Positions 5,435-51,153 are shown, numbered from the stretch's first letter. The stretch is 64,000 bases of DNA from Prevotellaceae bacterium UBA4336 (GCA_002394305.1 DGTM01000011.1:60778-124777); one strand, 5' to 3'. The notes: generated by a model from the sequence alone, not told the origin. Translations and numbers: made by a program.

Positions 5435-5485
5435 GGTAAGTGAAGATGGTTGTTGCCTCTACGTGGAGGGTGGAGGCGTAGGGAA

Positions 5486-7876: not shown

Positions 7877-8479
7877 TTAATCCCTCATCAGGTATTCCGC
7901 CAGCTTCTGTGTGGCGCGTCCGCGATGGCTGATGGCGTTCTTCGCTTCGGCAGTCATCTGTGCGAAGGCCAGGCCGTCGGCTTCTGCGGGAGCAAAGACG
8001 GGGTCGTAGCCGAAGCCGCCTTCTCCAGCCCGCCGGGGCAGTATCTTGCCCTCCACGATGCCTTCGAAGAGGTTCTCCTCTTGTCCCTTGATCAGGGCGA
8101 TGACGGTGCGGAAGCGTGCCGTGCGGCTGTCGGCGTTCTCCAGTTTGTCCAGCAGGCACCGGATGTTGGCATCGGCATCGTGGCTCTCGCCGTAGCCGTT
8201 CATGGCGCCGAAGCGTGCCGTGAAGACGCCCGGCGCACCGCCCAGGGCATCCACCTCCAGCCCGGTGTCGTCGGCAAAGCAGTCCACGCCGTAGTGTTCG
8301 TGCACGTAGCGTGCCTTCTGCAGGGCGTTGCCCTCCAGCGTGTCGGCCGTCTCGGGAATGTCTTCCGTGCAGCCGATGTCGCTCAGCCCTCTGACGCAGA
8401 AGGCCTCGCCCAGTATCTGCCGCACTTCCTCCAGCTTGTGGGCATTGTTCGTCGCCATGACAAGTTCTCGTTTCATCAT
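7877..8479 (-). CDS. rdgB: dITP/XTP pyrophosphatase (RdgB/HAM1 family)
   Basis: 200 aa. The motifs ATNNAHKLEEV, EDIPETADTLEGNALQKA, DDTGLEVDALGGAPGV, FGYDPVF and KNAISHRGRA are hallmark RdgB/HAM1 motifs. Confidence 0.85.
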   Translation of the reverse strand: MMKRELVMATNNAHKLEEVRQILGEAFCVRGLSDIGCTEDIPETADTLEGNALQKARYVHEHYGVDCFADDTGLEVDALGGAPGVFTARFGAMNGYGESHDADANIRCLLDKLENADSRTARFRTVIALIKGQEENLFEGIVEGKILPRRAGEGGFGYDPVFAPAEADGLAFAQMTAEAKNAISHRGRATQKLAEYLMRD

Positions 8480-8523
8480 TTCACCTTTTAACTTCTTAAC
8501 CTTTTCACCTTTTCACCTTTTTA
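8471..8523. repeat. TTTTCAC / TTTCACC word array
   Basis: The sequence is tttcatcatttcaccttttaacttcttaaccttttcaccttttcacctttttatcg. It spans the rdgB start codon region and the stop of the upstream YitT gene. Confidence 0.7.
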
Positions 8524-9481: not shown

Positions 9482-10375
9482 TCAAGCCTTGATGGCGTTG
9501 AAGCCGTTCCCATAGACACCCTCGGCGCGGCTTTGCGAGACGAAGGCCCCAGGGTCGGTCTCCTGCACCATGCGCAGTATCTTCACAGCTTCGTGTTTGT
9601 GCACAATGGTGATGAGGACCTTGATGTCCTGATGGCTGTAGTAGCCCTCGCCGTCCAACGTGGTAACGCTGTGGCTGGTCTCGGATATGATGCGCCGGCA
9701 TATCTCGTCGGGCTTCTTGGTGAAGATGATGAACTGGATGTCCTGCCTGGTGCTGTTGATGAGCATGTCCAGGGCGTAGGTATAGACGACCAGCGTGACA
9801 TAGCCGAACACCACCATCCTCACGTCGTGGAAGATGGGCCAGCACGATGCGATGACCAGGAAGTCGAGGAAGAGCAGGGCGCGTCCGAAGGAGATGTTGC
9901 GGTACTTGTTCACCAGCGCCGCAATGATGTCCCATCCGCCCGTGCTGCCTCCGTTGAGGAAGACGATGCCGATGCCCAAGCCGTTCAGTATGGCGCCCAG
10001 CACGCAGGCCATCGAGTCCTGACCCTCGCCGAGCACCTGTATCAGGTTGCCTGCGTCGTCCGTCATCAGTTCCTGTCCCAGCTGCAGGTAGGTCGAGAGT
10101 GCCAGCACCGCATACGAGGTCTTGATGGTGAATTTCCAGCCGAGCTTCCAGAGGGCAAACGCCAGCAGGATGCTGTTGGCAATCAGTATGGCATAGCTCA
10201 CGGGGAAGCCCGTCACGTAGTAGACGATGGCGAACATGCCCGTCATGCCGCCCGTCGTGATGTGGTAGGGCAACAGGAAGGCAGCCCACCCCAGCGAGTA
10301 GGTTGCCATTCCTATGTTGATAGCCAGGAAGTCCACAACGAACTCCCGTATCCTGTGATAGTTCAGCTTCTGCAT
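9482..10375 (-). CDS. YitT-family integral membrane protein (DUF2179), paralog 2
   Basis: The track ORF (9482-10399) begins at TTG. The first ATG at 10375 gives MQKLNYHRIREF..., removes the overlap with leuS, and the rest aligns with paralog 1 (FLLPYHITTGGMTG). Confidence 0.7.
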   Translation of the reverse strand: MQKLNYHRIREFVVDFLAINIGMATYSLGWAAFLLPYHITTGGMTGMFAIVYYVTGFPVSYAILIANSILLAFALWKLGWKFTIKTSYAVLALSTYLQLGQELMTDDAGNLIQVLGEGQDSMACVLGAILNGLGIGIVFLNGGSTGGWDIIAALVNKYRNISFGRALLFLDFLVIASCWPIFHDVRMVVFGYVTLVVYTYALDMLINSTRQDIQFIIFTKKPDEICRRIISETSHSVTTLDGEGYYSHQDIKVLITIVHKHEAVKILRMVQETDPGAFVSQSRAEGVYGNGFNAIKA

Positions 10376-10376
10376 G

Positions 10377-13268
10377 TCAGGCCTGAGGTTTGAGCACAAT
10401 GTTGACGATGCGTCCGGGGATGGCGATGGTCTTCACCACCTGCATGCCTTCGAGGTACTTGGCGGCCTCGGGCGCGGAGGTGGCGAGCTCAATCATCTGT
10501 TCGGGAGTGGCATCGGCAGGGAAGAACATGTCGAAGCGCACCTTGCCGTTGAACTGCACGCCGAGCTTCACGCTTGTCTCCACGAGGTACTTCTCCTCCC
10601 ACTGCGGCCAGCGGGCGTCGCAGACGCTTCCTTCCTGGCCGAGGGCCTCCCAAAGCTCTTCGGCAATGTGAGGTGCGAAGGGCGCGATGAGGACGGGCAA
10701 CGTCTGGAGCACCTGGCGACTGGTGCAACGCTGTTGAGTCAGTTCGTTCACGGCCACCATGAAGGCCGAGATGCTCGTGTTGTAGGAGAAAGCCTCAATG
10801 TCGGCTGTCACCTTCTTGATGAGCTTGTGCAGCGTCTTGAGGCTGTCGGCAGAGGGCTCGCCGTCGGTGGCTGCGAGTTCGCCGTCCTTCGTCCAGAAGA
10901 GTGCCCAAAGCTTCTTGAGGAAGCGGTGGCAGCCGTCGATGCCGTTGGTGTCCCAAGGCTTCGACTGCTCGACGGGGCCGAGGAACATCTCGTACAGGCG
11001 CAGCGTGTCGGCACCGAACTTCTCGACAATCATGTCGGGGTTGACCACGTTGTACATCGACTTCGACATCTTCTCGATGGCCCAGCCGCAGATGTACTTG
11101 CCATCCTCGAGAACGAACTCGGCCGTGGCGTACTCGGGGCTCCATGCCTTGAAGGCCTCGATGTCGAGCACATCGTTCTTGACAATGTTGACGTCCACAT
11201 GGATGGGCGTGACGTCGTACTGGTCCTTGAGGCCCAGCGAGACGAAGGTGTTGGTCTCCTTGATGCGGTAGACGAAGTTGGAGCGCCCCTGTATCATGCC
11301 CTGGTTGACGAGCTTCTGGAAGGGTTCGTCCTTCTTGCTCACGCCGAGGTCGAAGAGGAACTTGTTCCAGAAGCGCGAGTAGATGAGGTGACCCGTGGCA
11401 TGCTCCGAGCCGCCGACGTAGAGGTCGACGTTCTGCCAGTAGCTTGCGGCGCGGTCGCTGACCAGAGCCTTGTCGTTGTGCGGGTCCATGTAGCGGAGGT
11501 AGTAGGCGCTCGAGCCTGCAAAGCCCGGCATGGTGTAGAGCTCGATGGGGAAGACGGTCTTGTTGTCGACCAGCGAACAATCGACCACACGGCGGTTCTT
11601 CTCGTCCCAGGCCCACACTTTTGCATTGCCGAGGGGCGGTTCGCCGGTTTCTGTCGGCAGGAACTTCTCCACCTGCGGCAGTTCGATGGGCAGGCACTCC
11701 TCGGGTATCATGGTGGGGATGCCCTGCTTGTAGTAGACGGGGAAGGGCTCGCCCCAGTAGCGCTGGCGACTGAAGATGGCGTCGCGCAGACGGTAGTTCA
11801 CTTTGACGCGGCCCAGGCCATGTGCCTTGACGAAGCGCTTCGTCTCGGCTATTGCCTCCTTGATGGTGAGGCCGTTCAGGCAGAGGCGTTCGCCGTCGTA
11901 TTCGACGCTCTTCTCCGGAGCGCTGGGCGAATTGATGACGATGCCTTCCTTTGCGTCGTAGCTCTCCTCCGAGACATCGGCACCTTCCACCAGCGGGATG
12001 ATGGGCAGGCCGAAGTGACGGGCAAAGGCGTAGTCGCGGCTGTCGTGTGCGGGCACTGCCATGATGGCGCCTGTGCCGTAGCCTGCGAGGACATACTCGG
12101 CGATGTAGATGGGACACTTGTCGCCCGTGATGGGGTTGATGCCGTAGGCTCCGCTGAAGACGCCCGTGACGGTGTGGTCTATCATGCGTTCCCTCTCGGT
12201 GCGGCTCTTGACGTAGTGGAGGTACTCGTCGACGGCGGCACGCTGCTCGGGCGTCGTGACTTTGTCGACCAGCTCGCTTTCGGGTGCGAGGACGAAGAAG
12301 GTGACGCCGAACATCGTGTCGGCGCGTGTGGTGAAGATGGTGAACTCAGTTGACGAGTTGACGAGTTGTTTGTTAGTTGACGAGTTACCATTAGCTCCTT
12401 CATCAACCAGCTTGTCAACTTGTTTGCTTGTCAACTCGTCAACTATTTTAATCTTTACCTCTGTTCCTTCGCTGCGGCCTATCCAGTTGCGCTGTGTCTC
12501 CTTGATGCTCTCGCTCCAGTCGATAGTGTCGAGTCCGTCGAGGAGGCGCTGGCTGTAGGCGCTGACGCGCAGGCACCACTGCCGCATCTTCTTCTGCTCT
12601 ACGGGGTAGCCTCCGCGGACGCTGACGCCTTCGACCACTTCATCGTTGGCGAGGACGGTGCCGAGCCCCGGGCACCAGTTCACCATCGTCTCGCCGAGGA
12701 AGGCCAGACGATAGTTCATCAGCAGGTCGCTCTGTGCCTTCTCGTCGGAGGGCCAACGGCCTTCCTGCTTGAACTTCTCGATGAGGCGTTCGATGGGCTG
12801 TGCCTTCTGGAGCTCTTCGTTGAAGTAGCTGTTGAACATCTTCTGGAAGGCCCATTGCGTCCAGTGGTAGTAGTCGGGTGTGCAGGTGCGCACTTCGCGG
12901 TCCCAGTCGAAGGAGAAGCCTATCTTGTCGAGCTGCTCGCGGTAGCGGTCGATGTTGGCGAAGGTTGTCTTCTCGGGGTGCTGTCCGGTCTTGATGGCGT
13001 ACTGCTCGGCTGGCAGTCCGTAGGCGTCGTAGCCCATGGGGTTGAGTACGTTGAAGCCCTGGAGCCGCTTGTAGCGTGCATAGATGTCGCTGGCGATGTA
13101 GCCGAGGGGGTGGCCTACGTGCAGTCCTGCGCCGCTGGGGTAGGGGAACATGTTGAGGACGTAGAACTTCTTACGGTTCACGTCCTCGGTGACTTTGTAG
13201 GTGTGGCGCTGCGTCCAGAGGCGGTGCCACTTCTGTTCTATCTCGCGGAAGTTATATTCTTTTGCCAT
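10377..13268 (-). CDS. leuS: Leucine--tRNA ligase
   Basis: 963 aa. It shows the class I signatures [16 protein letters not shown] (HIGH region) and KMSKSMYN (KMSKS), plus the TTRADT editing-domain motif. Collinear LeuRS similarity runs throughout. Confidence 0.97.
12349..12443. repeat. Palindromic word-repeat element (GTTGACGAG three times forward, C[TC][TC]GTCAAC three times reverse), in frame inside leuS
   Basis: The sequence is agttgacgagttgacgagttgtttgttagttgacgagtt...cttgtcaacttgtttgcttgtcaactcgtcaact. The outer 15 nt are perfect reverse complements. It encodes [32 protein letters not shown] directly N-terminal to [10 protein letters not shown]. Confidence 0.75.
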
Positions 13269-16401: not shown

Positions 16402-16520
16402 AGTATTTTTTGGCAAACGCTTTCTTGTTTGCAAAAAAAAGTGTTACTTTGTAGCGAAAATAACTAAATCAGGGGTTGCGGGCAACAGGTTTGCCTGCCA
16501 ATCCGCCAACAAGAAGCGAT

Positions 16521-19352
16521 ATGAGACACATCTTTCTGCCTTTGCTGGCAATGCTCATGATAGTGCAGAGTGCCGCAGGAAGCGACCTGACAGGCTTCCG
16601 CGTGAGTAGGATGACAGAACCGGCCGGCATCGTCCGCACGGCACAGTTCTCTTGGCAGACCGTCAGCAAGAAGCCAAACGTCATGCAGACGGCCTACCGC
16701 ATGCGTGTGGCAGCATCGAAGTCCGACCTCAAGTCTGGCCGCAACCTGCTTTGGGACAGCGAAAGAACGCCGTCCGACGAGAGCGTCATGGTGCCCTACC
16801 AGGGGCGTCGGCTGCCCTACGAGAGCCGCATCTACTGGCAGGTGGAGGTATGGCTTAACACGGGCGAACACCTCACAAGCCCCGTGCAAAGCTTCCTGAC
16901 CGGACTCAAGCAGTTCCGCAGCGATGCAGAGTGGATAGGAGCAGCCTCCACCGACCCCTCCAAAGGAGAGGGGAATGGCGGGACGAGCGGACAGGTCACC
17001 CCTCCCTCGGAGGGGACGGGCGAGGCCTATGACCTCCCGGCCCGCTACCTCCGCCACACCTTCACGGTCGGCAGCAAGGTGCGCCGCGCCATACTCTACG
17101 TCAGCGGCATGGGCTACAGCTCCACCTATATCAACGGCAAACCCGTCAGCCCCGACGTCTTCGGCACCCTTCAGACCGACTACACGAAGACCGTCTACTA
17201 CAACACCTACGACGTCACCTCCCTGCTCCGCCGCGGCAGCAATGCCATCGCGTCGGTGCTCGGCAACGGCTACGTGCTCGGCTTCAGCCAGGGCTTCGCC
17301 TCGTTCGGACTGCCACGCCTGAAGGCACAGCTCGTTGTAGAGACCGACCGCGACACCCTCTGCGTCGTGAGCGGAACGGACTGGAAGGTCACGACGGAAG
17401 GCCCCATCCAGCGCAACCACCTCTACAACGGCGAACGCTACGAGGCCGCACGCGAGATGAAGGGCTGGCAGACCGCCGCCTTCGACGACTCCCGCTGGCA
17501 GCAGGCACAGCGAATGCCCGCACCCACCGGCATCGTGCAGCCACAGCCCTGTCCCGGCATGCGCGTGCAGAAAGAGCTGCAGGCGCAGAGCATCCGCCGC
17601 ACAGCCGACGGGCGCTTCATCGTCGACCTCGGGCAGAACATGGTCGGGCAGCTCCGCGTACACCTCGTCGGGCAGAAGGACGTCCCCGTCGTCATCCGGC
17701 ATGCCGAAATCCTCGACCCGAACGACCCCGAGCAACTCTCCGTGGCAAACCTCCGCACAGCCAAGTGCACCAACACCTATGTCCCTGCCGCCGACGGACC
17801 GTTCACCTATCAGCCACAGCTCGTCTACCAGGGCTTCCGCTACGTCGAGATATCCGGCGTCGCACAGGCGCCCCGCCTCTCCGACATCACAGGCTGCGTC
17901 ATCTACGACTACATGGCCGACCAGGGAACCTTCTGGTGCGACAACGAACTCCTCAACCAGCTGCACAAGAATGCCTACTGGGGCATCATCGGCAACTACC
18001 ACGGCATGCCCACCGACTGCCCACAGCGCGACGAACGGCTGGGCTGGACGGGCGACCACGTGATGGGATGCTACGGCGAGAACCTCCTGCTCGACAACGG
18101 AGCACTCTACTACAAGTGGCTCCAGGACAACATTGACACGCAGGATGAAAACGGACTCCTCGCCGACATCGCACCCGCCTACTGGGTGGCACGCGGCGGA
18201 GACGTGGCGTGGGAGGCCCTCTCCGTCTACGCCACATACATGCTCCTGGTGCGCTACAACGACACCGACGCCGTGCTCAAGTACTATCCGGCACTCCAGA
18301 AATACGTCCTCTACCTGGACCGCAACCTCCAGGACGGCATCGTGCCCACCAACAGCTACGGCGACTGGTGCATGCCGCCCGAGCGCCCCGACCTCATTCA
18401 CAGCGAGGACCCCGCCCGCAAGACCGACGGCAAGCTCATCTCCACCGCCATGTACTACAGCGTGCTCACCATGATGGGCCAGATGGCAATACAGCTCGGA
18501 CTGCAGGCCGACATGCTCGACTACGACCGCCGGCAAGAGAAGCTCCGCGAAGCATACAACCGACATTTCTATAACCCCGAGACGGCAAGCTACACGGGCA
18601 ACACGGTCACGGCCAACCTCCTCTCCCTCGAGTTCGGCCTCGTGCCTAAGGGAGACGAGGAACGCGTCATGCAGAACATCGTGGATGTCACTGAGAGAAC
18701 CTACAACGGACACGTCAGCTGCGGCGTGCTCGGCATGCAGCATCTCATGACGGGCCTCACCCATCGCGGCCATCTCGACCTGGCTATGCGCATCATCCTG
18801 CAAAGGGATTATCCCAGCTTCGGCTACATGATAGACCAGGGCGCCACTACCATCTGGGAACTCTGGAACGGCAATACCGCCGACCCCGCCATGAACAGCG
18901 GCAACCACGTCATGCTCCTCGGCGACCTCCTCATCTGGATGTACGGCGACCTGGCAGGCATACGACAGACACGTACCAGCCGCGCCTACAAGGAACTGGA
19001 CATGCACCTGAGCATGCCCGAGCAGCTCAACCACGTCCGCGCCACGCACCAGACACCCTACGGTACCGTCTGCAGCGAATGGAAGCGAACGGAGGAAGGC
19101 ATCGAATGGACGGTGGAAGTGCCGGCCAACAGCAGGGCCCGCATACACGTTCCCTCCGGCTATACGGTGCAGGGCATGCACAGCTTGCGGTGGGCCAGCG
19201 CAGAGGTGGAGAACGACGACATCTGCCTTCTGGTCGGCTCCGGCACCTACACCATCAAGGCCCACAAGGTGTTCACCGCACCGCAGCAGACCATATTCCG
19301 CCGCATGACGGAGACTCTGAGGAATATCCCCGAGTTCATCAAGAACTTCTGA
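16521..19352 (+). CDS. Alpha-L-rhamnosidase (GH78)
   Basis: The track ORF starts at TTG 16476. The ATG at 16521 gives the signal peptide MRHIFLPLLAMLMIVQSAAG. The hallmark GMPTDCPQRDERLGWTGD and overall GH78 collinearity are visible. The long antisense ORF 16464-19361 is rejected. Confidence 0.85.
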   Translation: MRHIFLPLLAMLMIVQSAAGSDLTGFRVSRMTEPAGIVRTAQFSWQTVSKKPNVMQTAYRMRVAASKSDLKSGRNLLWDSERTPSDESVMVPYQGRRLPYESRIYWQVEVWLNTGEHLTSPVQSFLTGLKQFRSDAEWIGAASTDPSKGEGNGGTSGQVTPPSEGTGEAYDLPARYLRHTFTVGSKVRRAILYVSGMGYSSTYINGKPVSPDVFGTLQTDYTKTVYYNTYDVTSLLRRGSNAIASVLGNGYVLGFSQGFASFGLPRLKAQLVVETDRDTLCVVSGTDWKVTTEGPIQRNHLYNGERYEAAREMKGWQTAAFDDSRWQQAQRMPAPTGIVQPQPCPGMRVQKELQAQSIRRTADGRFIVDLGQNMVGQLRVHLVGQKDVPVVIRHAEILDPNDPEQLSVANLRTAKCTNTYVPAADGPFTYQPQLVYQGFRYVEISGVAQAPRLSDITGCVIYDYMADQGTFWCDNELLNQLHKNAYWGIIGNYHGMPTDCPQRDERLGWTGDHVMGCYGENLLLDNGALYYKWLQDNIDTQDENGLLADIAPAYWVARGGDVAWEALSVYATYMLLVRYNDTDAVLKYYPALQKYVLYLDRNLQDGIVPTNSYGDWCMPPERPDLIHSEDPARKTDGKLISTAMYYSVLTMMGQMAIQLGLQADMLDYDRRQEKLREAYNRHFYNPETASYTGNTVTANLLSLEFGLVPKGDEERVMQNIVDVTERTYNGHVSCGVLGMQHLMTGLTHRGHLDLAMRIILQRDYPSFGYMIDQGATTIWELWNGNTADPAMNSGNHVMLLGDLLIWMYGDLAGIRQTRTSRAYKELDMHLSMPEQLNHVRATHQTPYGTVCSEWKRTEEGIEWTVEVPANSRARIHVPSGYTVQGMHSLRWASAEVENDDICLLVGSGTYTIKAHKVFTAPQQTIFRRMTETLRNIPEFIKNF
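16955..17015. repeat. Two small hairpins (cccctc-caaagga-gagggg and cccctcc-ctc-ggagggg), in frame inside GH78
   Basis: They encode DPSKGEGNGGTSGQVTPPSEGTGE in a position where I expect no sequence in GH78 relatives. The GEG/GRG-type coding matches the other in-frame elements. Confidence 0.55.
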
Positions 19353-19377
19353 CGCGAACAACTAACAACCTTCAACC

Positions 19378-20067: not shown

Positions 20068-20073
20068 ACCTGT

Positions 20074-20145
20074 CCTATAAGTCCCATAGAACCTATAGGT
20101 CCAATAAGTCCTATAAGTCTCATAAGTCCCATCAACCTAATAACC
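20074..20145 (+). repeat. Eight-unit 9-bp periodic repeat (consensus CCNATARGT) directly upstream of the GH2 start codon
   Basis: The units are cctataagt cccatagaa cctataggt ccaataagt cctataagt ctcataagt cccatcaac ctaataacc. The array ends 9 nt before the ATG at 20155. Confidence 0.8.
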
Positions 20146-21993: not shown

Positions 21994-22022
21994 AGGCCCC
22001 CTCTAACTCCCCAAAGGGGAGG
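21994..22022. repeat. Copy of the CCCC-AAA-GGGG hairpin element, immediately after the GH2 stop
   Basis: The sequence ggccccctctaactccccaaaggggagga matches the 1571-1612 and 1727-1760 copies. It may double as a terminator stem. Confidence 0.6.
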
Positions 22023-22026
22023 ATAA

Positions 22027-22098
22027 CCCATAAGACCCATTGGACCGATAGGCTCCATAAGTACCATTAGACTCCAACGACCCATATAACCCCTATAA
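22027..22098 (+). repeat. Second 9-bp periodic array (CCNATARGN, about 8 units) directly upstream of the DUF1080 gene start
   Basis: The units are cccataaga cccattgga ccgataggc tccataagt accattaga ctccaacga cccatataa cccctataa. Word, orientation and position relative to the ATG match the 20074-20145 array. Confidence 0.75.
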
Positions 22099-23258: not shown

Positions 23259-24638
23259 TTACAGTTGAATCGAGTCCCAGTTGGCAATTTCCTCGCTGAT
23301 GTAGCCTGTCTTGCCGTTGACGTTCACCTTGTACCACCATTTGTAGAAGCCGTCGGCCTCCTTGTGCGAGACGAACCCAAGGCAGGGATAGCCTTCGGGC
23401 AGCTCGCCGTCGTTGTCTAGGGTGAACAACACTTTGCTCTTCAGCGACGGCTTCTGCCGGACGTTTGCCCTGCGGATGTCGCTGTTCAGATAGACGTATC
23501 CTTGGCCTTTTGTTGCCTCGCGGAGTTTCACCTTTGCTCCGGCTTTGGGCACGAGGCCGTAGTCCTGCACCTCGATGAAGTAGTTGTCGCCCGAGTCGGC
23601 TATGTAGCGCATCTCGGAGCCGTCCTTCGTGACGACCACCCGCCCCTGATTGCTCAAGCCGCGCACGCCGCCTTTCAGCACGTAGAGCGGCTCGATGTGC
23701 AGGTTCTCCTTCGGGGCGAAGTTGGTGCTGTGCCACTCCAGGACGTTCCCCTCCATGAGTGGTGCGAAGAGGCACTGGCTGTAGCCCCAGTAGTCGGACT
23801 GCAGCTGATAGATGTCACCGATGCCCTCGAGCTTGAAGGGCGCCCCGAGGAACAGGCTGTCGTTCATCACGATTTCGCGGTCCGTCTCCGACTTAATCCG
23901 CAAGGTGAAGTCGTCGACCTGTCCGCCCCGCCAGCGTGTGACGGGCGTCAGCCAGTAGGAGAGCTCGTAGTCGCGCCCCACGCCCCAGCTCATGCGGTAG
24001 CGGTAGGTGTGGCGCACGGTGTTCTCGCCCTTGCGGAAGGGCGCGTCGAAGTAGTAGGCATAGGCAAAGGAACGGAACGAGTCGGGCAGCGCCGGGCAGA
24101 CGAGCACATCGTCCGTCGGCAGCAGACTGTCCGCCACCTCACCATAGCCCTTCCACGTGTCCAGGTCGAGCGGCGTCAGGTAGTCGTCCCTGCGCCCCTT
24201 CCACCCGGGGGATGAGTCGGGCGAAGAGCCTGCCACCACAGCGTTGCGGTGCTGGAGGGGCTTGCCGTTGAAGAGGACCGTGAAGTCCTCGATGAACGGA
24301 TGGATGCCGCGGCGGTCGAAGGGAACCCACGCATTGTAGGGCGCCGCAGCCTCGAATGCCATCGTCACCGTCTTGTCCTTATTATTATTATATAATGTGT
24401 AGTCCACCGTCACGGTGGCGAAGCTGTCCCGGCAAAGCGTAATCTCCAGCACCTCCTTCCTGACGGAGATGTCGGTCTCCCTGAGCGGCACCAGGAAGTT
24501 GCCGCTGGTGTAGTACACACCGTCGTTCGCATAGACGCTGAACATTGACCATTGACCATTGAACGTTGACCATTGAACATTGAACAAAGGCCAATGGGCA
24601 TTGAACAACAAAAGGAGCAGGATGGTGAACTTCTTCAT
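23259..24638 (-). CDS. Secreted hypothetical protein with a C-terminal bacterial SH3-like domain
   Basis: 459 aa. The C-terminus GYVYLNSDIRRANVRQKPSLKSKVLFTL...GFYKWWYKVNVNGKTGYISEEIANWDSIQL has an SH3b-like pattern. The N-terminus contains an in-frame word repeat. Confidence 0.6.
   Translation of the reverse strand: MKKFTILLLLLFNAHWPLFNVQWSTFNGQWSMFSVYANDGVYYTSGNFLVPLRETDISVRKEVLEITLCRDSFATVTVDYTLYNNNKDKTVTMAFEAAAPYNAWVPFDRRGIHPFIEDFTVLFNGKPLQHRNAVVAGSSPDSSPGWKGRRDDYLTPLDLDTWKGYGEVADSLLPTDDVLVCPALPDSFRSFAYAYYFDAPFRKGENTVRHTYRYRMSWGVGRDYELSYWLTPVTRWRGGQVDDFTLRIKSETDREIVMNDSLFLGAPFKLEGIGDIYQLQSDYWGYSQCLFAPLMEGNVLEWHSTNFAPKENLHIEPLYVLKGGVRGLSNQGRVVVTKDGSEMRYIADSGDNYFIEVQDYGLVPKAGAKVKLREATKGQGYVYLNSDIRRANVRQKPSLKSKVLFTLDNDGELPEGYPCLGFVSHKEADGFYKWWYKVNVNGKTGYISEEIANWDSIQL
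24541..24612. repeat. CATTGA[AC]C word array inside the 5' end of the 23259-24638 CDS
   Basis: The sequence aacattgaccattgaccattgaacgttgaccattgaacattgaacaaaggccaatgggcattgaacaac encodes LLFNAHWPLFNVQWSTFNGQWSMFSV right after the MKKFTILLLL signal start. The same word occurs at 34427-34447. Confidence 0.75.
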
Positions 24639-27393: not shown

Positions 27394-27852
27394 TTATTTC
27401 TTCTTGAACGTCTTCCTCAGGTCGGCGAGGCTGGCTTTGCCCTCCATGTAGACGAGGGTGATGGTGTGCTCTGCCATGTTTGTCCGGCTCTGATAGCAGA
27501 TGTACCGGTGCAGGCCTTTCCTGATGTCGGCAATCTGCACGATGGCGTAGTAGAGGTGACCGTCGCGGTACTCCAGCTCCAGATTCTCGTCGTCGTCGGA
27601 GAGTCGCCCCTTCATGTCTTCCTCGAAGAGCGCCTCCACCCTGTCGCGCTGCGTGCTGCTGGTGGTGAACTTGACGGTGTGGAGCACCTTCAGCTTGTAG
27701 GGCTCGAGGCTCTCCCCCTTGACGAGGCTCTCCTGTAGGGCCAGTTCGTTGACGATGTTCCCCTTGAATACTTCGTCGATTCGTAGGCCCTTCTGTGCCG
27801 AGAGGGGCAGAGCGGCGACGATGGCGACGAGCGTTATGAGTAGCTGTTTCAT
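27394..27852 (-). CDS. Secreted hypothetical protein, in the position typical of DUF4252-type partners in Bacteroidetes ECF operons
   Basis: 152 aa with the signal peptide MKQLLITLVAIVAALPLSAQ. A 4-nt overlap links it to the anti-sigma gene. Confidence 0.4.
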   Translation of the reverse strand: MKQLLITLVAIVAALPLSAQKGLRIDEVFKGNIVNELALQESLVKGESLEPYKLKVLHTVKFTTSSTQRDRVEALFEEDMKGRLSDDDENLELEYRDGHLYYAIVQIADIRKGLHRYICYQSRTNMAEHTITLVYMEGKASLADLRKTFKKK

Positions 27853-28400
27853 AGTCCGTTGAATATGTTGCTGAGTTGTTCTTCCTGGTTTCCGTTGCTG
27901 AATATCTCCTGCAAGGCTTCCTGTCCCATCCGCATGGCCGCCTGCTTGTCGTCGAGTTTTTTGCCGTCGACATAGGCAACAGCCATGCTTTCCTCTTCCA
28001 GCCGAAGCGGTGCCAGCAGGATGAAGGCGAAGGCGGCAATGCAGGCTGCAGCGAGCAGGAGGCCAAGCCTGTGGGACCCTCTCCCAGCCTCTCCCTTGCA
28101 GGGAGAGGAGTAGTTACTTTTGTTCCCCGCTAAGCCTCCATTGGTATCTGCTCCTCTCCCAACAAGGGAGAGGTCGGGAGAGGGTCTGTCTGCCGCCAAC
28201 CTGTCAAGGGCTTGAACGGAAGGCGTTGGCTGCGTCTCGCCGAGCAGGGCAAACATCTGCGCGTAGGGCATCAGGTCGGCAGGCAGGCGGTCGGCGTGGC
28301 CCAGGTATTCGCCCAGCTGTTGCAGCTCTTCCTGCGTGCTCTCGCCGTCGAGGTAGCGGGTCAGGAGCAGGCGTATGTTTTCCGGTGTTACCTTATTCAT
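27849..28400 (-). CDS. Anti-sigma factor (single-pass membrane protein)
   Basis: 183 aa. The N-terminal LLLTRYLDGESTQEELQQLGEYL is an anti-sigma-like helix, and there is one TM segment (LGLLLAAACIAAFAFILLAPL). It lies immediately downstream of the ECF sigma gene. Confidence 0.6.
   Translation of the reverse strand: MNKVTPENIRLLLTRYLDGESTQEELQQLGEYLGHADRLPADLMPYAQMFALLGETQPTPSVQALDRLAADRPSPDLSLVGRGADTNGGLAGNKSNYSSPCKGEAGRGSHRLGLLLAAACIAAFAFILLAPLRLEEESMAVAYVDGKKLDDKQAAMRMGQEALQEIFSNGNQEEQLSNIFNGL
28072..28188. repeat. ~115-bp element with terminal inverted repeats (gaccctctccc ... gggagagggtc) and two internal CTCTCCC-N5-GGGAGAG hairpins, in frame in the anti-sigma gene
   Basis: The hairpins are cctctccc-ttgca-gggagagg (28089-28109) and ctctccc-aacaa-gggagag (28154-28172). 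The element encodes RPSPDLSLVGRGADTNGGLAGNKSNYSSPCKGEAGRGSH just before the TM helix. Confidence 0.65.
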
Positions 28401-28413
28401 GTTACTATGGCTT

Positions 28414-28914
28414 TTAGGTTTCGTTTCGTTTCATGAACTTCTCCAGGAGTTTCTTCCTGGCTTTCGAGAGGGCGGTGCGGACGGTGGTCTCGCTGATGCC
28501 GAGGAGTTCTGCTATCTCGCTGTTCTCCAGCCCGTCCTGCTGGCTCATCCGGAGTATCTGCATCTGTGCGGCAGGGAGCTCGCCGATGCGGTCCTCCAGC
28601 CACCGGGCATTTTCCTTCTCCTCGAGCATCCACTCCGAATCGTGTGCCGAGGCGAGCTTTATCTCCTCGTTCAGTTCTAAGGGGACGACCTTCCGCTTGC
28701 GGAGTTTGGAGATACACAGGTTGCGGCAGATGGCATACGTCAGTGCCCTGACGGAGCGGACGGCGTCGAGCTGGTGGCGGATGCTCCAGAGGCGCAGCAG
28801 TGTGTCCTGCACGTTGTCCTCCGCCTCGGCCTGGCTGCCCAGGAAGCGGCGGCTGACGGCCAGGATGTCGGCCCTCAGGTCACGTGCCAGTATGCAGAAC
28901 GCTTCTTTCTCCAT
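28414..28914 (-). CDS. ECF-type RNA polymerase sigma-70 factor
   Basis: The ATG at 28914 gives a 166-aa protein. Region 2 reads AEDNVQDTLLRLW. Region 4 reads LPAAQMQILRMSQQDGLENSEIAELLGISETTVRTALSKARKKL. The track ORF is over-extended upstream. Confidence 0.85.
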   Translation of the reverse strand: MEKEAFCILARDLRADILAVSRRFLGSQAEAEDNVQDTLLRLWSIRHQLDAVRSVRALTYAICRNLCISKLRKRKVVPLELNEEIKLASAHDSEWMLEEKENARWLEDRIGELPAAQMQILRMSQQDGLENSEIAELLGISETTVRTALSKARKKLLEKFMKRNET

Positions 28915-28940
28915 CGTGCTTCGTTGCTCTCTGTTATAAT

Positions 28941-28965
28941 GACGCAAAAGGGGCCGTTTTGTTCC
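28941..28965 (-). promoter_or_regulatory. ECF-type promoter (GGAAC-N16-CGTC) upstream of the sigma gene
   Basis: The minus strand reads GGGAACaaaacggccccttttgCGTCatt. The spacer is exactly 16 nt, and the site lies about 27 nt upstream of the ATG. This is consistent with autoregulation. Confidence 0.5.
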
Positions 28966-29014
28966 CGCTGATGCGAAAAAAAGTTTGTGCCATGCTCCGG
29001 CGGATAAAGGAAAA

Positions 29015-29052
29015 GCGGGCGAAGACCGACGGCCCGGCTGGTCTTCGCCCGC
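29015..29052 (-). terminator. Intrinsic terminator after the GH97 gene
   Basis: The minus strand reads gcgggcgaagacc-agccgggccgtc-ggtcttcgcccgc (13-bp stem), followed by ttttccttt. Confidence 0.75.
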
Positions 29053-29078
29053 TTGCTGATGTGTGGCAGGATGCTGTG

Positions 29079-31025
29079 TCAGAGGTCGATGCGTGCGCAC
29101 CAGCCGCCGTTGCGGACCATGTGGATGGGCTGGACGGTCGTGCTGCCTACCTTGCTCTCCTTGCGGAGGTAGTCCATGGCGATGATGTGTGCGTTCACGC
29201 CGTCCTCGAAGCTCGTCATCTTGTACTGCTTGCCTGCGGGCAGGAAGTCGAGCTTCAGCTCAATGTTGCGCTCGGTGCTGTTCGTGATGCCGCCGATGAA
29301 CCACTGGTTGCCTTTGCGCTTTGCCGTCACGCAGTACTGGCCGGCTTCGGCTGCGAGGACGCGTGTCTCGTCCCAGTTGACGGGCACGCTGGTGAGGAAG
29401 TCGCGGCAGTCGGGCCACTGGTCGTAGCGGCAGGGGTTGTCCATGAGCATCTGCAGGTTGCTCTCGGCAAGCACGAAGATGGCCAGGTTGAAGGCCTTTG
29501 TGCCCACGCCGGCGCAGATGGGACGGCCTCCGTGGTGGCGCTCCGGCTGGTAGTTGAGCATGGAGCCGGGCGTATAGTCCATCGGTCCGACGGCATTGCG
29601 TATGAAGGGCAGCCATACGCTGTTGTCGGGCTTGCAGCTCCCGTTGTACTCCATGCCGCGCACACCTTCGTAGGTCAGCACGTTGGGGTACTTGTAGTCC
29701 AGGCCGCTGGGGTGGAAGGCGCCGTGGAAGTCGACGAAGATATGGTGCTTGGCAGCTTCACGGGCCACGCGCTCGTAGAAGTTCACCATCCATTGGTCCT
29801 GACGGTCCATGAAGTCAATCTTCGTGCCCTTGATGCCCCACTCCTCAAACTTCTCGAAGAGGTCCATGTGGTGCTCTACGGTGAGCCACGGGAGCCAAAG
29901 GATGACGCCTACGCCTTTGCTCTTGCCGTAGGCGATGATTTCGGGCAGATGCACTTCGGGGTTGGTCTCGAAGGGGTTGCGTGTGTTTTTTGCCCAGCCT
30001 TCGTCGATGAGGATGTAGCCCACGCCGTTGCGGGCGGCGAAGTCGATGAAGTACTTGTAGGTGTCGAGGTTGATGCCCGACTTGAACGTCACCTCCGGGC
30101 CGAAGGGAATGCCGTTGAGCCAGTCCCAGCAGGTCTGTCCGACCTTAATCCAGCTGGGGTCGCCGATGGCGTTCGCGGGAGCCAGGCGGACAGGCATCGT
30201 GCTTTCGACGAGCTGGCCGTCTTGCTGCGTGATGAGCATGTAGCGCCAGGGGAAGGTGCGGGTGCCCGATGTCTTGGCTACGTACGGGGCCTCCTTCAGG
30301 ATCTTGTGCCTGCGGTCGCCGTCGTCCTCGTATTCGGTGGGGCACTTGGGCTGGATGATGGCGAAGGCGTTGCTGCCCTCGCCTGTTGACTTGAGGAACG
30401 TCCCGGGATAGTCGAACAGGTCGAACTCGCTGATGAGGACCTTCTGCCGCTCTCCCATCACGAGGATGGGCAGCTCGCTCATCTTGTCGTCGGCCTTCCA
30501 CTCGTTGCTTGCCACGACGGAGTAGTTCTCTTCGCAGCTTGTCTTGAAGGCGCCGGCCTGCTGCATCACGAGCTTGGCAGGCGAGGCGAGCTGCCAGGTG
30601 CCGTCCTCGCCCATCACCTCGATGTCGCCCTTCAGGGCTGTGACGAAGCGGTAGGCCACGCCGTCGTCGTAGATGCGCCACTCCAACTTGTAGCCTCCGC
30701 CGAAGGTGAGGGTGAGCAGGGTGTAGGTGTTGTCCACCTTGCTGAACTTCAGTGGATGGATGGGCGTGACGGTCTCGCTGACCTTCTGCACCTTTTTGCC
30801 CTTCAGGACGGGCTTCTCGCCGAGGGTGCGGTCGCTGAGGGTCATGCCGATGTGGCACTGCTTGAACAGCAGCTCGCCGTGGCTCTCTACGTCGTAGTAG
30901 ATGCGGTCGGCTGCGGTGACGGTCACTTTCGTCTGTCCGTCGGGACTCGTTGCGCTGACTTGTTTCTGTGCGTGTGCGACGATGCAGGAAAGCAGCATCA
31001 CCGCGATGGAAAAGGTTTTCTTCAT
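29079..31025 (-). CDS. GH97 glycoside hydrolase (SusB-like alpha-glucosidase / alpha-galactosidase)
   Basis: 648 aa with a signal peptide. The N-terminal SPDGQTKVTV...YYDV pattern, GVGYILIDEGW and overall length match GH97. Confidence 0.8.
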   Translation of the reverse strand: MKKTFSIAVMLLSCIVAHAQKQVSATSPDGQTKVTVTAADRIYYDVESHGELLFKQCHIGMTLSDRTLGEKPVLKGKKVQKVSETVTPIHPLKFSKVDNTYTLLTLTFGGGYKLEWRIYDDGVAYRFVTALKGDIEVMGEDGTWQLASPAKLVMQQAGAFKTSCEENYSVVASNEWKADDKMSELPILVMGERQKVLISEFDLFDYPGTFLKSTGEGSNAFAIIQPKCPTEYEDDGDRRHKILKEAPYVAKTSGTRTFPWRYMLITQQDGQLVESTMPVRLAPANAIGDPSWIKVGQTCWDWLNGIPFGPEVTFKSGINLDTYKYFIDFAARNGVGYILIDEGWAKNTRNPFETNPEVHLPEIIAYGKSKGVGVILWLPWLTVEHHMDLFEKFEEWGIKGTKIDFMDRQDQWMVNFYERVAREAAKHHIFVDFHGAFHPSGLDYKYPNVLTYEGVRGMEYNGSCKPDNSVWLPFIRNAVGPMDYTPGSMLNYQPERHHGGRPICAGVGTKAFNLAIFVLAESNLQMLMDNPCRYDQWPDCRDFLTSVPVNWDETRVLAAEAGQYCVTAKRKGNQWFIGGITNSTERNIELKLDFLPAGKQYKMTSFEDGVNAHIIAMDYLRKESKVGSTTVQPIHMVRNGGWCARIDL

Positions 31026-34451: not shown

Positions 34452-36107
34452 ATGAGTGAACTAAGAATACGTTGCCGCAACAATGGAAAGAAGATAAGCG
34501 TGCCTTTTGGCAGCTCGCTCTATGATGTCTTCGCACAAGCGAACTTCCACATGGACTACGGCCCTGTGGCGGCTCGCGTCAACAACAAGGTGCAAGGCAT
34601 GAACTACCGCTTCTACAACAACAAGGACGTGGAGTTCCTCTCGCTCACTTCCCCCAGCGGGATGCGCACCTACATACGTACCCTCTTCTTCATCCTTGCC
34701 AAGGCGGTGGAGGACACCTTCCCCGAGGCGAAGCTCGTCATCGGGAGCGCCGTGTCGCGCGGCTATTACTGCGAGCTGCACCTCGGTCGTCCGGTGGAGG
34801 AAGAGGACGTGCGTGTCATCAGGCAGCGCATGCAGGAGATTATTGATGCCGACATGTTTATCCATCGCATCCAGTGCCCCATCGAAGATGCCATCGAGAT
34901 GTTCCAGCGGCACGGCATGACCAGCAAGGTGCAACTCCTGGAGAGTCAGGACAGCCTCTACACATATTATTATAAGCTGGGCGACACCATCGACTACTTC
35001 TACGGCTGCCTGCTCACCCGCACCAGCCAGGTGCATCTCTTCGACCTCGTGAAGTTCTACGACAGCCTCCTGCTGCGCATCCCGTCGGTGAAGGACCCGT
35101 CGCGGCTGGAAGAGATGGTGGAGCAGCAGAAGATGCTCGGCGTCATCCGTGAGCATCGGCGCTGGCAGGACATCCTGGGCGTGCGCACCGTGGGCGAGCT
35201 CAACGCGGCAATCCTGGCCGGACATGCCACCGACCTCATCAACGTCAGCGAGGCCTTGCAGGAGAAGAAGCTGGTGGGCATAGCCGACGAGATAGCCGAG
35301 CGCGGCGCCCGCATCGTGCTCCTGGCCGGACCGAGCAGCAGTGGCAAGACGACTACGGCCAAGCGTCTGGCCATCCTCGTCATGGCATGCGGCCTGCGCC
35401 CCCACATCATCAGCACGGACGACTACTTCGTCAATCGTGTCGACACGCCGAAGGATGCCAACGGCGAGTACGACTTCGAGTGCATCGAGGCCGTCGATAC
35501 CGAGCTCTTCAACAAGCAGATGAATGCCCTGCTCAGCGGCGAGGAGGTTGAGCTGCCGCGCTACGACTTCCGTTCCGGCGAGCGTGTCTTCGAGGGGCGC
35601 AAGCTCCGCATAGGGCCGGACGACGTCATCCTGCTCGAAGGCAACCATGCCCTCAACCCAATCTTCACACGCCAGATACCGGAGGAAAAGAAGTTCCGCA
35701 TCTACGTCTCGGCCCTTACGACCATCCAGCTGGACGACCACAACCACATCCCCACGGACGACATCCGCCTGCTGCGCCGCATCCTGCGCGACTACCGGTA
35801 CCGCGGCTTCTCGGCCGTCGAGACCATCAAGCGCGGACCGAGCGTCAAGGCTGGCGAAGAGAAGTGGATCCTGCCCTTCCAGGAACTGGCCGATGCTACG
35901 TTCAACAGCGCCTTGCTCTACGAGTTGGGCGTGATTCGCGACCAGGTGATTCCCATCCTGGAGCAGGTGCCGGAACGTGCCGTCGAGTATGCCGAAGCGT
36001 CGCGTCTGCGCAAGTTCCTGGCCTACTTCCTCAGCATCCCCGGCGACCAGGTGCCGCCCACCAGCCTGTTGCGCGAGTTCGCCGGAGGAAGCTCGTTCAA
36101 GTATTAA
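34452..36107 (+). CDS. Uridine-kinase-family nucleoside kinase with an N-terminal TGS / ThrRS-like second additional domain
   Basis: The track start at 34446 is TTG, and the ATG at 34452 gives MSELRIRC.... The P-loop reads LLAGPSSSGKTTTAKRL. The architecture is typical of Bacteroidales 'nucleoside kinase'. Confidence 0.7.
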   Translation: MSELRIRCRNNGKKISVPFGSSLYDVFAQANFHMDYGPVAARVNNKVQGMNYRFYNNKDVEFLSLTSPSGMRTYIRTLFFILAKAVEDTFPEAKLVIGSAVSRGYYCELHLGRPVEEEDVRVIRQRMQEIIDADMFIHRIQCPIEDAIEMFQRHGMTSKVQLLESQDSLYTYYYKLGDTIDYFYGCLLTRTSQVHLFDLVKFYDSLLLRIPSVKDPSRLEEMVEQQKMLGVIREHRRWQDILGVRTVGELNAAILAGHATDLINVSEALQEKKLVGIADEIAERGARIVLLAGPSSSGKTTTAKRLAILVMACGLRPHIISTDDYFVNRVDTPKDANGEYDFECIEAVDTELFNKQMNALLSGEEVELPRYDFRSGERVFEGRKLRIGPDDVILLEGNHALNPIFTRQIPEEKKFRIYVSALTTIQLDDHNHIPTDDIRLLRRILRDYRYRGFSAVETIKRGPSVKAGEEKWILPFQELADATFNSALLYELGVIRDQVIPILEQVPERAVEYAEASRLRKFLAYFLSIPGDQVPPTSLLREFAGGSSFKY

Positions 36108-36137
36108 AGCCTCACCGCCAAGCAAGGCTCGACGATA

Positions 36138-36343
36138 GTCAACCCTCCTCCGAAGAGAGGGGAGAAAGGAAGACGAGGAGAGGCTGAAACGAAAGCTGTT
36201 ACAGAGTGAAAAAGGATAAAATGATACAGGATTCTCTCTTCGGAGAAGGGAGAAAGAAAGACTAGAACTAAAACTATTACAGAATGAAAAAGAATTCTAA
36301 GACACAGAATTCCCCTCTCCTCGGAGAGGGGCAAGGGGTGAGG
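36138..36343 (+). repeat. ~78-bp tandem repeat, about 2.7 copies. The last copy contains the start codon and first ~20 codons of the downstream gene.
   Basis: Compare aaagctgttacagaGTGaaaaaggat...acaggattctctcttcggagaagggagaaag (36192-36262) with aaaactattacagaATGaaaaagaat...acagaattcccctctcctcggagaggggcaagg (36270-36343). Each unit carries a CTC-rich/GAG-rich hairpin. The last hairpin is perfect (cccctctc-ctcg-gagagggg, 36312-36331). Confidence 0.75.
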
Positions 36344-37432
36344 CTTTGCTCCATTGATGCCCTTCGAGGCTTTGACATGCTGTTCATCATGGGCGGCGCA
36401 GGTTTACTTGCCGCATTGGCACAGTGGATGCCTTGCGACCTGACCGAGACGCTGGCTGAGCAGATGAGTCACGTAGAGTGGGACGGACTCCGCCACCACG
36501 ACACCATCTTCCCGCTGTTCCTCTTCATCGCGGGCATCTCGTTCCCCTTCTCCTTGCAGAAACAGTTGGAGAAGGGCAAGTCCATGACAAGCATCTATCT
36601 GAAAATCGTGCGCCGAGGCTTGATGCTGGTGCTCTTGGGCATGGTCTACGGCGGCCTGCTGAACTTCAATTTCGACACGCAGCGTATCCCCAGTGTGTTA
36701 GGGCGAATCGGTCTGGCCTGGATGTTTGCAGCCCTCATATTCACCGCGACGGGCAGGAAGTTGTGGCCGAAGGTGGCTGTCGTACCGGTCATTCTGATTG
36801 CTTACTGGCTGGTTTCTGCCTTCGTGCACGCGCCGGATGTCAGCCCCTCAGTCGAGCCTCTGACGCGCGAAGGCAACATCGCCTGCTACATCGACCGCAC
36901 GTTGCTGGGTGCCCATTGCTACAGACCCGACTACGACCCTGAGGGCCTTTTCTCCACCATCCCTGCCATCTGCACGGCTATGCTGGGAATGCTTACCGGC
37001 CTCTTCGTGCAGCGTTCCAAGCCTACGTCGCGGACGGCGCTCACGCTCTTCGCGGCAGGCATCGTCTTTGCCCTCTTGGGCGCAGCGTGGAACACCATCT
37101 ATCCCATTAATAAGGCCCTGTGGAGCAGCTCCTTCGTGCTGGCCGTTGCCGGATATTCCCTTGTGATGTTCGCCCTGTTCTACTACCTCATAGAGGTGTT
37201 GGGGTGGCGGCGTTGGGCGTTTTTCTTTACGGTCATCGGCATGAACTCCATCACCATCTACCTGGGGCAGCGCTTCATCAACTTCTCCTACACGTCCGAG
37301 AAGCTCTTCTCCGGCCTTGTGAAGCTGATGCCGGAGAACTCGCAGACCTTCTTCACCCAGCTGGCCTACATCGTCGTCTGCTGGCTCTTCCTCTACTTCC
37401 TCTACCGCAAGCGCGTGTTCCTGAAGGTGTGA
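36284..37432 (+). CDS. DUF5009/DUF1624 membrane acyltransferase-like protein (heparan-alpha-glucosaminide N-acetyltransferase-like)
   Basis: 382 aa and polytopic. It carries CSIDALRGFDMLFIMGG and HVEWDGLRHHDTIFPLFLFIAGISFPFS, typical of this family. Confidence 0.7.
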   Translation: MKKNSKTQNSPLLGEGQGVRLCSIDALRGFDMLFIMGGAGLLAALAQWMPCDLTETLAEQMSHVEWDGLRHHDTIFPLFLFIAGISFPFSLQKQLEKGKSMTSIYLKIVRRGLMLVLLGMVYGGLLNFNFDTQRIPSVLGRIGLAWMFAALIFTATGRKLWPKVAVVPVILIAYWLVSAFVHAPDVSPSVEPLTREGNIACYIDRTLLGAHCYRPDYDPEGLFSTIPAICTAMLGMLTGLFVQRSKPTSRTALTLFAAGIVFALLGAAWNTIYPINKALWSSSFVLAVAGYSLVMFALFYYLIEVLGWRRWAFFFTVIGMNSITIYLGQRFINFSYTSEKLFSGLVKLMPENSQTFFTQLAYIVVCWLFLYFLYRKRVFLKV

Positions 37433-50557: not shown

Positions 50558-50984
50558 AAGCGGGACAATGTTTTCTTTGACTTGCTGTGGACAGATACAA
50601 AAAAAGCGTGGGTCTCTTCTGTTCCAGTTGCCCGTTCCGCTGCAAAAGGCTCTCGCATTGCCCATCAAGTCTGAACGAGCAACGCCGAAGCCCACGCGAA
50701 AGATATGCCAACACATCAACAGCAACGCACGTACCTTCTGTAGGGAGAAAGGTACTGCGTGCGGAGATATCAACATATTTCCACATAGGTCATCTACCGT
50801 TGCTTTGTCTCGGACTTGATTGTGAATTTGCGAGATTCTTTGCAGCCTAAGAACAAAGCGCCTGTGTAAACGCCTTTCTGTATATGTGCCCCACCGTCCC
50901 GGCTTCTGCTGACAGGCGTCATCGAGGCTTCGGGGCCGGATGGTTTGGCCTGTTCTTGCTTCCGCAGGAATGGTGACGACGTTG

Positions 50985-50992
50985 CAAAGTTA
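50985..50992 (-). promoter_or_regulatory. -7 box (TAACTTTG) upstream of the LytTR/kinase pair
   Basis: It matches TAnnTTTG. It implies a long leader of about 420 nt to the ATG at 50557. Confidence 0.35.
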
Positions 50993-51117
50993 GAAAATTT
51001 ATGCGAATTGGCAAAGGAAAAGCTGAATATTTGTTGTCACGCACACTTGTTTGGCATGTCAGTACGTGCGAAGTTGGCTATTTTTCCCCGTGGCACGCCG
51101 CTGATGCCGGAAAACAG

Positions 51118-51153
51118 GAATCCCCGCCGCCCTGTGAAGGACAGCGGGGATTC
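51118..51153 (-). terminator. Intrinsic terminator after the GH85 gene
   Basis: The minus strand reads gaatccccgc-tgtccttcacagggcg-gcggggattc, followed by ctgttttcc. Confidence 0.65.

Follow-up and report, generated by a model that had tools for sequence, protein, structure and literature searches.

We analyzed a family of short hairpin elements that lie inside the genes of a 64,000-nucleotide stretch of DNA from Prevotellaceae bacterium UBA4336 (GCA_002394305.1 DGTM01000011.1:60778-124777), hereafter called the window. We conclude that these hairpins are probably BoxC/PIT/TM triplex-motif repeats, carried in frame within genes, and that they form the ends of DUF559 nuclease cassettes, which may drive them. 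The window belongs to a metagenome-assembled genome (MAG) of a rumen Bacteroidales, designated G000 (2.75 Mb in 71 contigs, 56% G+C, 76% complete); the other G numbers denote the genomes of relatives, L numbers denote loci and C numbers denote contigs. A preliminary description, made from the window's sequence alone, had listed five in-frame sites and likened the elements to transposable elements of the miniature inverted-repeat type (MITEs) or repetitive extragenic palindromic (REP) sequences, dispersed and retained inside genes. Its core reading is supported, in that in-frame copies were found genome-wide and as lineage-specific inserts. The refinement offered here is that the elements are the end-pieces of DUF559 cassettes, and that they belong to the known BoxC/PIT/TM family (PMC4666352) rather than to a new one.

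The repeat unit is about 36 bp long (33–39 nt) and consists of a homopyrimidine block, a 3–5-nt loop, the complementary homopurine block, a 2–3-nt linker and finally a further purine block, the third, which mirrors the second. Some units stand alone and others are paired as inverted doublets of 66–190 bp; G000 contains 76 such doublets. We counted hairpins with a pyrimidine 5′ arm of at least 6 nt and a loop of 3–9, using as controls the mirror class, in which the purine arm comes first, and three third-order Markov simulations of the genome. G000 contains 323 such hairpins, compared to 33 of the mirror class and 33–42 in the simulations, an approximately ten-fold excess over chance and over the composition-matched random sequence against which the preliminary description had asked to see them compared. 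Given these controls, about 35–40 of the 323 hairpins, mostly those with 6-bp stems, are expected by chance. Among all hairpins of G000 with 7-bp stems, the 13 commonest stems are composed of C and T only. A pattern search found 111 matches and none for the reversed pattern, and nhmmer with a seed found about 50 loci, of which about 25 are full length (88–136 bp). A BLAST search with a 117-nt seed found the element in 3 of 35 genera; it scored four candidates per genome and was read for presence only, and the pattern search was used for counts instead.

At least six subfamilies are distinguished by their ends and loops, with F1 and F2 ending in GACC..GGTC and F3 to F6 ending in GCC..GGC. They are separated by paired changes that preserve the complementarity of the stem, and the order of the three blocks is the same in all of them; the copy at 36312–36344, for example, has an 8-nt stem, a 4-nt loop, a 3-nt linker and the third block. 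Where a subfamily has asymmetric arms, its third block repeats the purine arm backwards, and no direct copy is present (GGAGGGG followed by GGGGGAGG in F4, GGGGGAG followed by GGGGAGGGGG in F3 and GGAGAGGGG followed by GGGGGTGAGG in F5), while the third block of F2 fits the mirror rule with one mismatch. The reversed third block is in the geometry that a purine-motif intrastrand triplex requires (G.G-C and A.A-T or T.A-T triads). The calculated DNA folding free energy of the doublet at 28075–28186 is −38.3 kcal/mol, compared to −17.5 ± 2.7 kcal/mol for shuffled sequences (z = −7.8). This energy is that of the hairpin; in the cell, the DNA may fold as a hairpin or triplex.

We saw no target-site duplication or direct repeats at the ends of the elements. 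Instead, their flanks often prolong the inverted repeat, as in CA|GACC..GGTC|TG. The palindromes end in GACC.. or GCC.. and carry no GT[AG]G or CGTC tag; GTAG is found in the F1 loop, but only through chance. A homologous 45-nt center is common to four F1 copies located in different genes, while the centers of many other doublets are mutually unrelated. Separately, a tandem array with a 51-bp period (G000:C13:36231–36728) contains eight triplex-motif hairpins and is read in frame (SPSPTGEGSRQPAKVTF, about six times) within a 546-aa open reading frame (ORF) that also bears a histidine-kinase ATPase-like motif.

We found four DUF559 genes in G000 (104–117 bits), and all four lie between two inverted units whose third blocks face outward. 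Each of these cassettes is about 0.5 kb long with a nuclease gene of about 125 codons, and each is paired with a different subfamily of ends: F3 on contig C41, F1 on C25, F6 on C20 and F5 on C47. The C25 ends are those of the subfamily found in the window's anti-sigma factor gene, including the subterminal AGTAGATAC. The four proteins are full length (124–130 aa), 41–48% identical to the first of the four, and share 39 invariant columns. Only the terminal 40–80 bp of each cassette recur in G000 (8–33 matches); the gene itself is unique. DUF559 has been grouped with Vsr among the PD-(D/E)XK nucleases (PMC3424549). We found no account in print of a DUF559 cassette with triplex-motif ends.

The cassettes are polymorphic. 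For each of them, one or more relatives, with flanks about 70–92% identical in nucleotide sequence, have no cassette at the orthologous site. At the C41 site, G042 and G043 have an AT-rich spacer; G041 and G042 have an empty C25 site, and G043 has only 63 nt at the C20 site. The C47 site of G044 consists of a bare TAAcATG junction, and the cassette is absent exactly between the stop codon and the next start codon. The pattern of presence and absence fits no single tree. In C41 and C25, the upstream host ORF reads across the left end of the cassette and stops shortly before the nuclease gene begins; the downstream host gene is then restarted, via the right end, from an ATG that overlaps the nuclease stop. 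The F3 cassette at G000:C41:49760–54312 (L176) lies between genes for a sodium:solute symporter and a GlcNAc 2-epimerase; the epimerase apparently starts at the ATG overlapping the nuclease stop because the cassette replaced both the spacer and the epimerase's own start codon. In several congeners, DUF559 matches were also observed within open frames of 494–651 aa (for example, G022:C18:34060–34383 and G005:C12:6099–6413), and thus whole cassettes may be read in frame within host genes there.

A different mini-cassette of about 0.5 kb was observed in two relatives at junctions where G000 has DUF559 cassettes (those of C47 and C25): L191 (G043:C131:5560–6320) and L192 (G047:C114:1180–1830). L191 encodes a four-helix-bundle protein (TIGR02436, E = 2e-35), and the ORF of L192 is a candidate member of the same family. 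Inverted arrays of an 8-nt word resembling TAGTTAAG or GTTAAAAT flank both mini-cassettes. The window itself contains five word arrays whose copy number differs between G000 and G043 (8479–8521, 12348–12386, 20068–20124, 22027–22098 and 24541–24612); they lie in coding and non-coding DNA, one of them inside leuS, and may be solo ends of four-helix-bundle cassettes.

Repeats and DUF559 genes also co-occur across the genus. The hairpin pattern has 0–265 matches in each of 40 congeners, compared to 0–4 for its reverse, and the hairpin count is suggestively correlated with the DUF559 count (rho 0.64, partial 0.62 given genome size; medians 38 versus 3).

All five in-frame sites listed for the window were recovered as members of one repeat superfamily, with slightly different limits. 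The first is an F1 inverted doublet of 112 bp at 28075–28186, a near-perfect long palindrome in which inverted ends of about 34 bp surround a 45-nt center; each end has a C-rich block, a 2–3-nt spacer and an 8–9-bp hairpin with a pyrimidine 5′ arm and a purine 3′ arm. It adds about 37 residues, in frame, directly before the transmembrane helix of a 183-aa single-pass protein (27849–28400, minus strand), which we place as an anti-sigma factor and which lies directly downstream of an ECF sigma factor gene (28414–29100). Pfam detected Sigma70_r2/r4 domains in the upstream ORF and gave no match for the anti-sigma ORF at 27849–28400, whose orthologs do align. Orthologs in G005, G011 and G017 have a short linker where G000 has about 32 extra residues, while the linker in G007 contains a canonical doublet of a different subfamily, F2.

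Single units and doublets occupy similarly tolerant positions in the other four hosts, as the preliminary description had anticipated. An F6 single unit at 1573–1606 lies in frame in an esterase between the signal peptide and the GDSL/SASA domain; the 12 insert residues are absent from the closest orthologs (G017, G056 and G007; 88–89% identical), where the signal peptide joins the catalytic domain. An F4 doublet at 16944–17026, wider than the 16955–17015 first reported, lies in frame in a GH78 rhamnosidase between an N-terminal Ig domain (40–144) and Bac_rhamnosid_N (201–365), a site at which seven congeneric orthologs have an unrelated 10-residue loop. The N-terminal tail of a DUF5009 membrane protein contains an F5 single unit, also in frame (36312–36344). 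Its 13-residue insert is present in L013, L014 and L016 and absent from L015 (92% identical) and from all the more distant orthologs examined, and L030 holds a different, unrelated unit at this site. Lastly, a mutated, decayed F3 doublet at 62589–62681 lies in frame in a loop between transmembrane helices of a 452-aa membrane protein (61856–63214, minus strand; homologs in G056, G009 and G058). This loop differs in every ortholog, including G056, where it also has element-like sequence; the case is therefore weaker and only partly an insertion. Congeneric orthologs thus lack the insert at four of the five sites, and the same peptides did not turn up in unrelated taxa, in agreement with the earlier claim that the segments are not ancestral.

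Three further copies lie in spacers of the window and were absent from the original list: a single unit in inverted orientation 5′ of the esterase start (1728–1755), an intergenic single unit directly 3′ of the GH2 stop codon (21995–22021) and a decayed F5-like doublet 5′ of the DUF5009 gene (36108–36185). The latter two are absent from G043. In public sequencing runs, read here at the level of contigs, a metatranscriptome contig from the source sample crosses the GH78 copy without a gap, and a sheep-gut metagenome contig covers the anti-sigma doublet without a gap. Among the contigs listed, no joint skips any copy, as removal at the RNA level would require, though RNA coverage of the anti-sigma copy was thin.

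Comparison of sister genomes shows that resident copies change size in frame. The window's contig has a collinear counterpart in G043, contig C149, which is 90–96% identical to it, and many of the alignment breaks coincide with elements; the syntenic 100 kb contains about 2 units in G043 and about 10 in G000. At the anti-sigma site, G043 has a single 37-nt unit and is exactly 75 nt shorter, the amount that would be lost by deletion between the pyrimidine block's two direct copies. At the GH78 site, G043 is 69 nt shorter, with 14 nt left that resemble both ends, and G047 has an extra half-unit (+27 nt, +9 aa). Over larger distances, the same linker holds different subfamilies in distant congeners and none in intermediate species.

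We then determined where copies lie genome-wide from 289 high-confidence units in 205 clusters. Inside an ORF whose two 240-nt flanks both read best in the host frame were 86 of the 205 clusters (42%, compared to 61% of random positions). Another 31 were otherwise inside an ORF call (random, 18%), 27 touched a gene end (random, 8%) and 61 were intergenic (random, 13.5%). The in-gene share is therefore 42–57%, and compared to random positions the elements avoid genes only mildly. When we applied Pfam to 20 sampled hosts of mid-gene doublets, in all 20 the insert lay between domains or split one. All of these hosts are ordinary conserved proteins; they include LigA (NAD-dependent DNA ligase), SerRS, PurL (FGAM synthase), the CCA-adding/poly(A) polymerase and FeoAB (FeoB), as well as glucuronate isomerase, a class-V aminotransferase, an M24 peptidase and MFS and OPT transporters.

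Selection on the genic copies is visible in their length and frame. Doublets with GACC..GGTC ends have a length divisible by three in 16 of 20 genic cases (66, 75, 87, 90, 96, 102, 111 and 186), compared to 4 of 10 elsewhere (binomial p = 2.5e-5), and genic doublets are shorter than non-genic ones and have more open frames. Gly, Ser, Pro, Leu and Glu are over-represented in the segments that genic copies encode, and the inserted peptides are presumably made.

Two inverted units bracketing a DUF559 gene constitute a cassette of about 0.5 kb, and the observations suggest a mechanism in which the nuclease would recognize the folded ends and drive their copying or movement. The 66–190-bp doublets have the anatomy expected of gene-less cassettes and may have been derived from cassettes by internal deletion; single units may be solo or collapsed ends. 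Of the six or more subfamilies, four have their own diverged nuclease cassette. Copies land anywhere, without target duplication, and those surviving in genes are stop-free, divisible by three in length and located in loops, linkers or termini, where they would be translated as Gly/Ser/Pro/Leu/Glu-rich peptides. Survival there is made easier by the arms, since no frame of a pure pyrimidine or pure purine stretch can contain a stop codon. Slippage between the repeated blocks of a resident copy would later change its size in frame. More specifically, and with somewhat less than even confidence, we propose that the DUF559 proteins are the missing partners of BoxC repeats, each nuclease copying or moving the cassette of its own subfamily, together with the gene-less derivatives, without target duplication. 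If this partnership is true, the cassette would be built for coding DNA, having stop-free arms and, in two of the four cassettes, a stop and restart arrangement.

Several observations weigh against this interpretation. The nuclease could be a passenger that merely favors such ends. Two subfamilies, F2 and F4, have no cassette in the 76%-complete MAG, and three congeners with many hairpins have no DUF559 match (G045 with 133, G056 with 75 and G055 with 43), all three genomes being incomplete. The correlation between repeats and DUF559 genes is only suggestive because the congener genomes are related, which the statistic ignores, and incomplete. Some of the differences between sister genomes are losses and not insertions, as the apparently empty GH78 allele of G043 looks like a deletion remnant. 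The excess of lengths divisible by three does not extend to copies with GCC..GGC ends, which by that measure are almost never so. When element ends were instead set by maximal extension of the inverted repeat, length modulo three was random (13/16/15); chance complementarity shifts the ends in this test, and thus only fixed end motifs are informative. The idea that being stop-free in all frames is a special trait was rejected: the number of open frames in the elements does not exceed that in random segments of G000. Finally, the gene calls underlying the placement counts came from a codon-usage ORF caller written for this analysis and not from a standard caller.

G000 as a whole is poor in stop codons and rich in long antisense ORFs. 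In the window, such shadow ORFs of up to 1481 aa lie opposite real genes at 16464–19361, 5450–7645, 10374–12353, 34461–36125 and 50945–55390. The opposite strand stays open because codon usage favors GAC/GTC, GAG/CTC and similar pairs; consequently, lists of ORFs are inflated and arguments from open frames are weaker in this genome.

To our knowledge, BoxC/PIT/TM sequences have been orphan repeats since the 1990s, and we know of no enzyme or function for them and of no link other than to local genome instability. The E. coli members, TM(ECO), were characterized by Holder et al. 2015 (PMC4666352), where earlier BoxC work by Bachellier and by Hoyne and Maher is cited. E. coli K-12 has 23 TMECO copies that are 'always located intergenically', sometimes as inverted pairs, and are tied to local rearrangement; they form a stable intrastrand triplex by circular dichroism and nuclear magnetic resonance, and no associated mobile-element gene, protein partner or mobility was reported (PMC4666352). 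The elements of G000 share the three-block unit of 34–37 nt, the 2–3-nt linker (often TTA) and the mirror purine block, and their blocks CCCTCTCCC / GGGAGAGGG / GGGTGAGGG are nearly the same as those in Table 1 of that study, with GGGTGAGG also shared, as compared by eye and with no statistic. Both also show occasional pairing in inverted orientation, division into sequence subtypes and an association with local rearrangement when related genomes are compared. Unlike in E. coli, 42–57% of the approximately 205 clusters are genic, the host is a rumen Bacteroidales and every DUF559 gene lies between two inverted units. We regard the intergenic location as a trait of E. coli and not as one that defines the family.

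Palindromic repeats inside genes have precedents. The Rickettsia palindromic elements (RPEs) of Ogata et al., as relayed in PMC10969869, are palindromic repeats of about 100–150 bp that occur in frame in unrelated, functional housekeeping genes. Like RPEs as portrayed there, the elements of G000 are retained as extra peptide segments at tolerant positions and are absent from orthologs. They differ in occurring in another phylum and in having a triplex-type third block; the RPEs, in that account, have no known parent gene. The elements therefore work like RPEs but are not members, as no sequence relation was found. In-frame REP copies are also described in DNA ligase, tRNA synthetase and similar genes of Opitutus terrae and R. 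conorii, within work on intragenic REPs and REPIN/RAYT systems (Di Nocera et al. 2013, PMC3733652; Quentin et al. 2018, PMC6006769). With REPIN/RAYT systems, the elements share short palindromes, found alone or as inverted dimers that fold into long structures, one cognate enzyme gene per subfamily and an absence of target duplication. In contrast, they have no GTAG/CGTC tag, and it is a DUF559 nuclease that the bracketed gene encodes, in place of a Y1 transposase; most REPs lie outside genes, but in G000 about half of the copies lie inside them. REPIN/RAYT systems are also the subject of Bertels and Rainey 2011. The repeat family and the in-frame insertion of palindromes are thus already known, and what distinguishes the present case is its genic scale, strict polarity, three-block anatomy, in-frame resizing and cassette pairing.

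These likenesses raise the possibility that the elements are REP- or REPIN-like and are mobilized in trans by a RAYT-like Y1 (HUH) transposase, with the DUF559 genes as passengers caught between REP pairs. We consider this explanation unlikely, though it fares best among the alternatives. G000 does encode three diverged Y1-like paralogs with HUH (DH[VL]H) and Y..NP motifs, one of which reaches 23.2 bits for Pfam Y1_Tnp (cut-off 23) and E = 8e-9 for NCBIfam REP_Tyr_transpos; the NCBIfam score, however, is 35.5 against a cut-off of 80, and the match spans one third of the model. The Y1-like family is multi-copy in the genus and its count also tracks hairpin load (rho 0.62, partial 0.55 given DUF559), a further point to set against a DUF559-driven mechanism, but the count is more strongly tied to genome size (rho 0.70), and G007, which is 89% complete, has 64 hairpins and no Y1-family member that we could find. 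Inverted doublets and the absence of target duplication fit REPINs, and RAYT subclasses with 'atypical' or 'double-foot' REPs, as well as in-frame REPs in tnpA, have been reported for Bacteroidetes (PMC6006769). Yet the units have no GTAG or CGTC tag, none of the three Y1-like genes has a unit within 1 kb, so that there is no REPtron, and the elements flank all four DUF559 genes.

A search of PDB sequences with the best Y1-like protein returned nothing useful. One of the three, a 456-aa RAYT-like Y1/HUH protein (G000:C67:13979–15346; L093:1249–2619), contains five in-frame tandem copies of a 14–15-residue repeat (AAKVHGEG..) between its HUH and Tyr motifs and also has a conserved C-terminal domain of about 150 aa. 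Its paralogs lie at C44:7007–7876 and C32:43920–44930, and genomes of the genus have up to a dozen matches each.

It is less probable still that the repeats are immobile, structure-forming motifs, created and enlarged where they stand by slippage and template switching at purine/pyrimidine tracts and spread only by recombination. Such a process would explain why a given site holds a single, a double or an extended form depending on the sister genome, and it would account for the many doublets with mutually unrelated centers; TM loci are rearrangement hot spots in E. coli (PMC4666352). Growth in place is harder to reconcile with the homologous 45-nt center common to four F1 copies in different genes, or with ends of 40–80 bp that are near-identical at dozens of unrelated loci. 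Nor does it fit the presence or absence of whole 0.5-kb cassettes exactly in the interval from a stop codon to the start codon that follows, or distant congeners with different subfamilies in one linker when the intermediates have none.

Classical MITEs, as deletion derivatives of insertion sequences (ISs) moved by a DDE transposase, would explain small, numerous elements with terminal inverted repeats and no coding gene, but are very improbable here, given flanks that tend to prolong the inverted repeat without any target-site duplication, the lack of a transposase gene between matched ends and the fact that the sole gene-bearing relatives carry a DUF559 nuclease. As candidates for a parent IS, we listed outward-facing unit pairs 0.4–5 kb apart. 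Besides three pairs that bracket DUF559 genes, those run through Pfam enclose ordinary genes (a dehydrogenase, an ABC ATPase, a sigma-54 activator and TolC).

If DUF559 nucleases do drive these repeats, they would constitute a nuclease-driven class of miniature mobile element, separate from both the IS/MITE and the RAYT/REPIN systems. What spreads BoxC-type repeats is now directly testable, with four cassettes, four matching subfamilies of ends, empty sites in sister genomes and a load that ranges from 0 to 265 across congeners. For annotation, the inserts add Gly/Ser/Pro/Glu-rich loops to proteins and displace predicted starts and ends, and assemblies break where copies of the repeat lie. For the organism itself, the result is a free-living gut anaerobe with about 100 in-frame repeat insertions in its housekeeping proteins, a scale that has so far been mainly that of Rickettsia.

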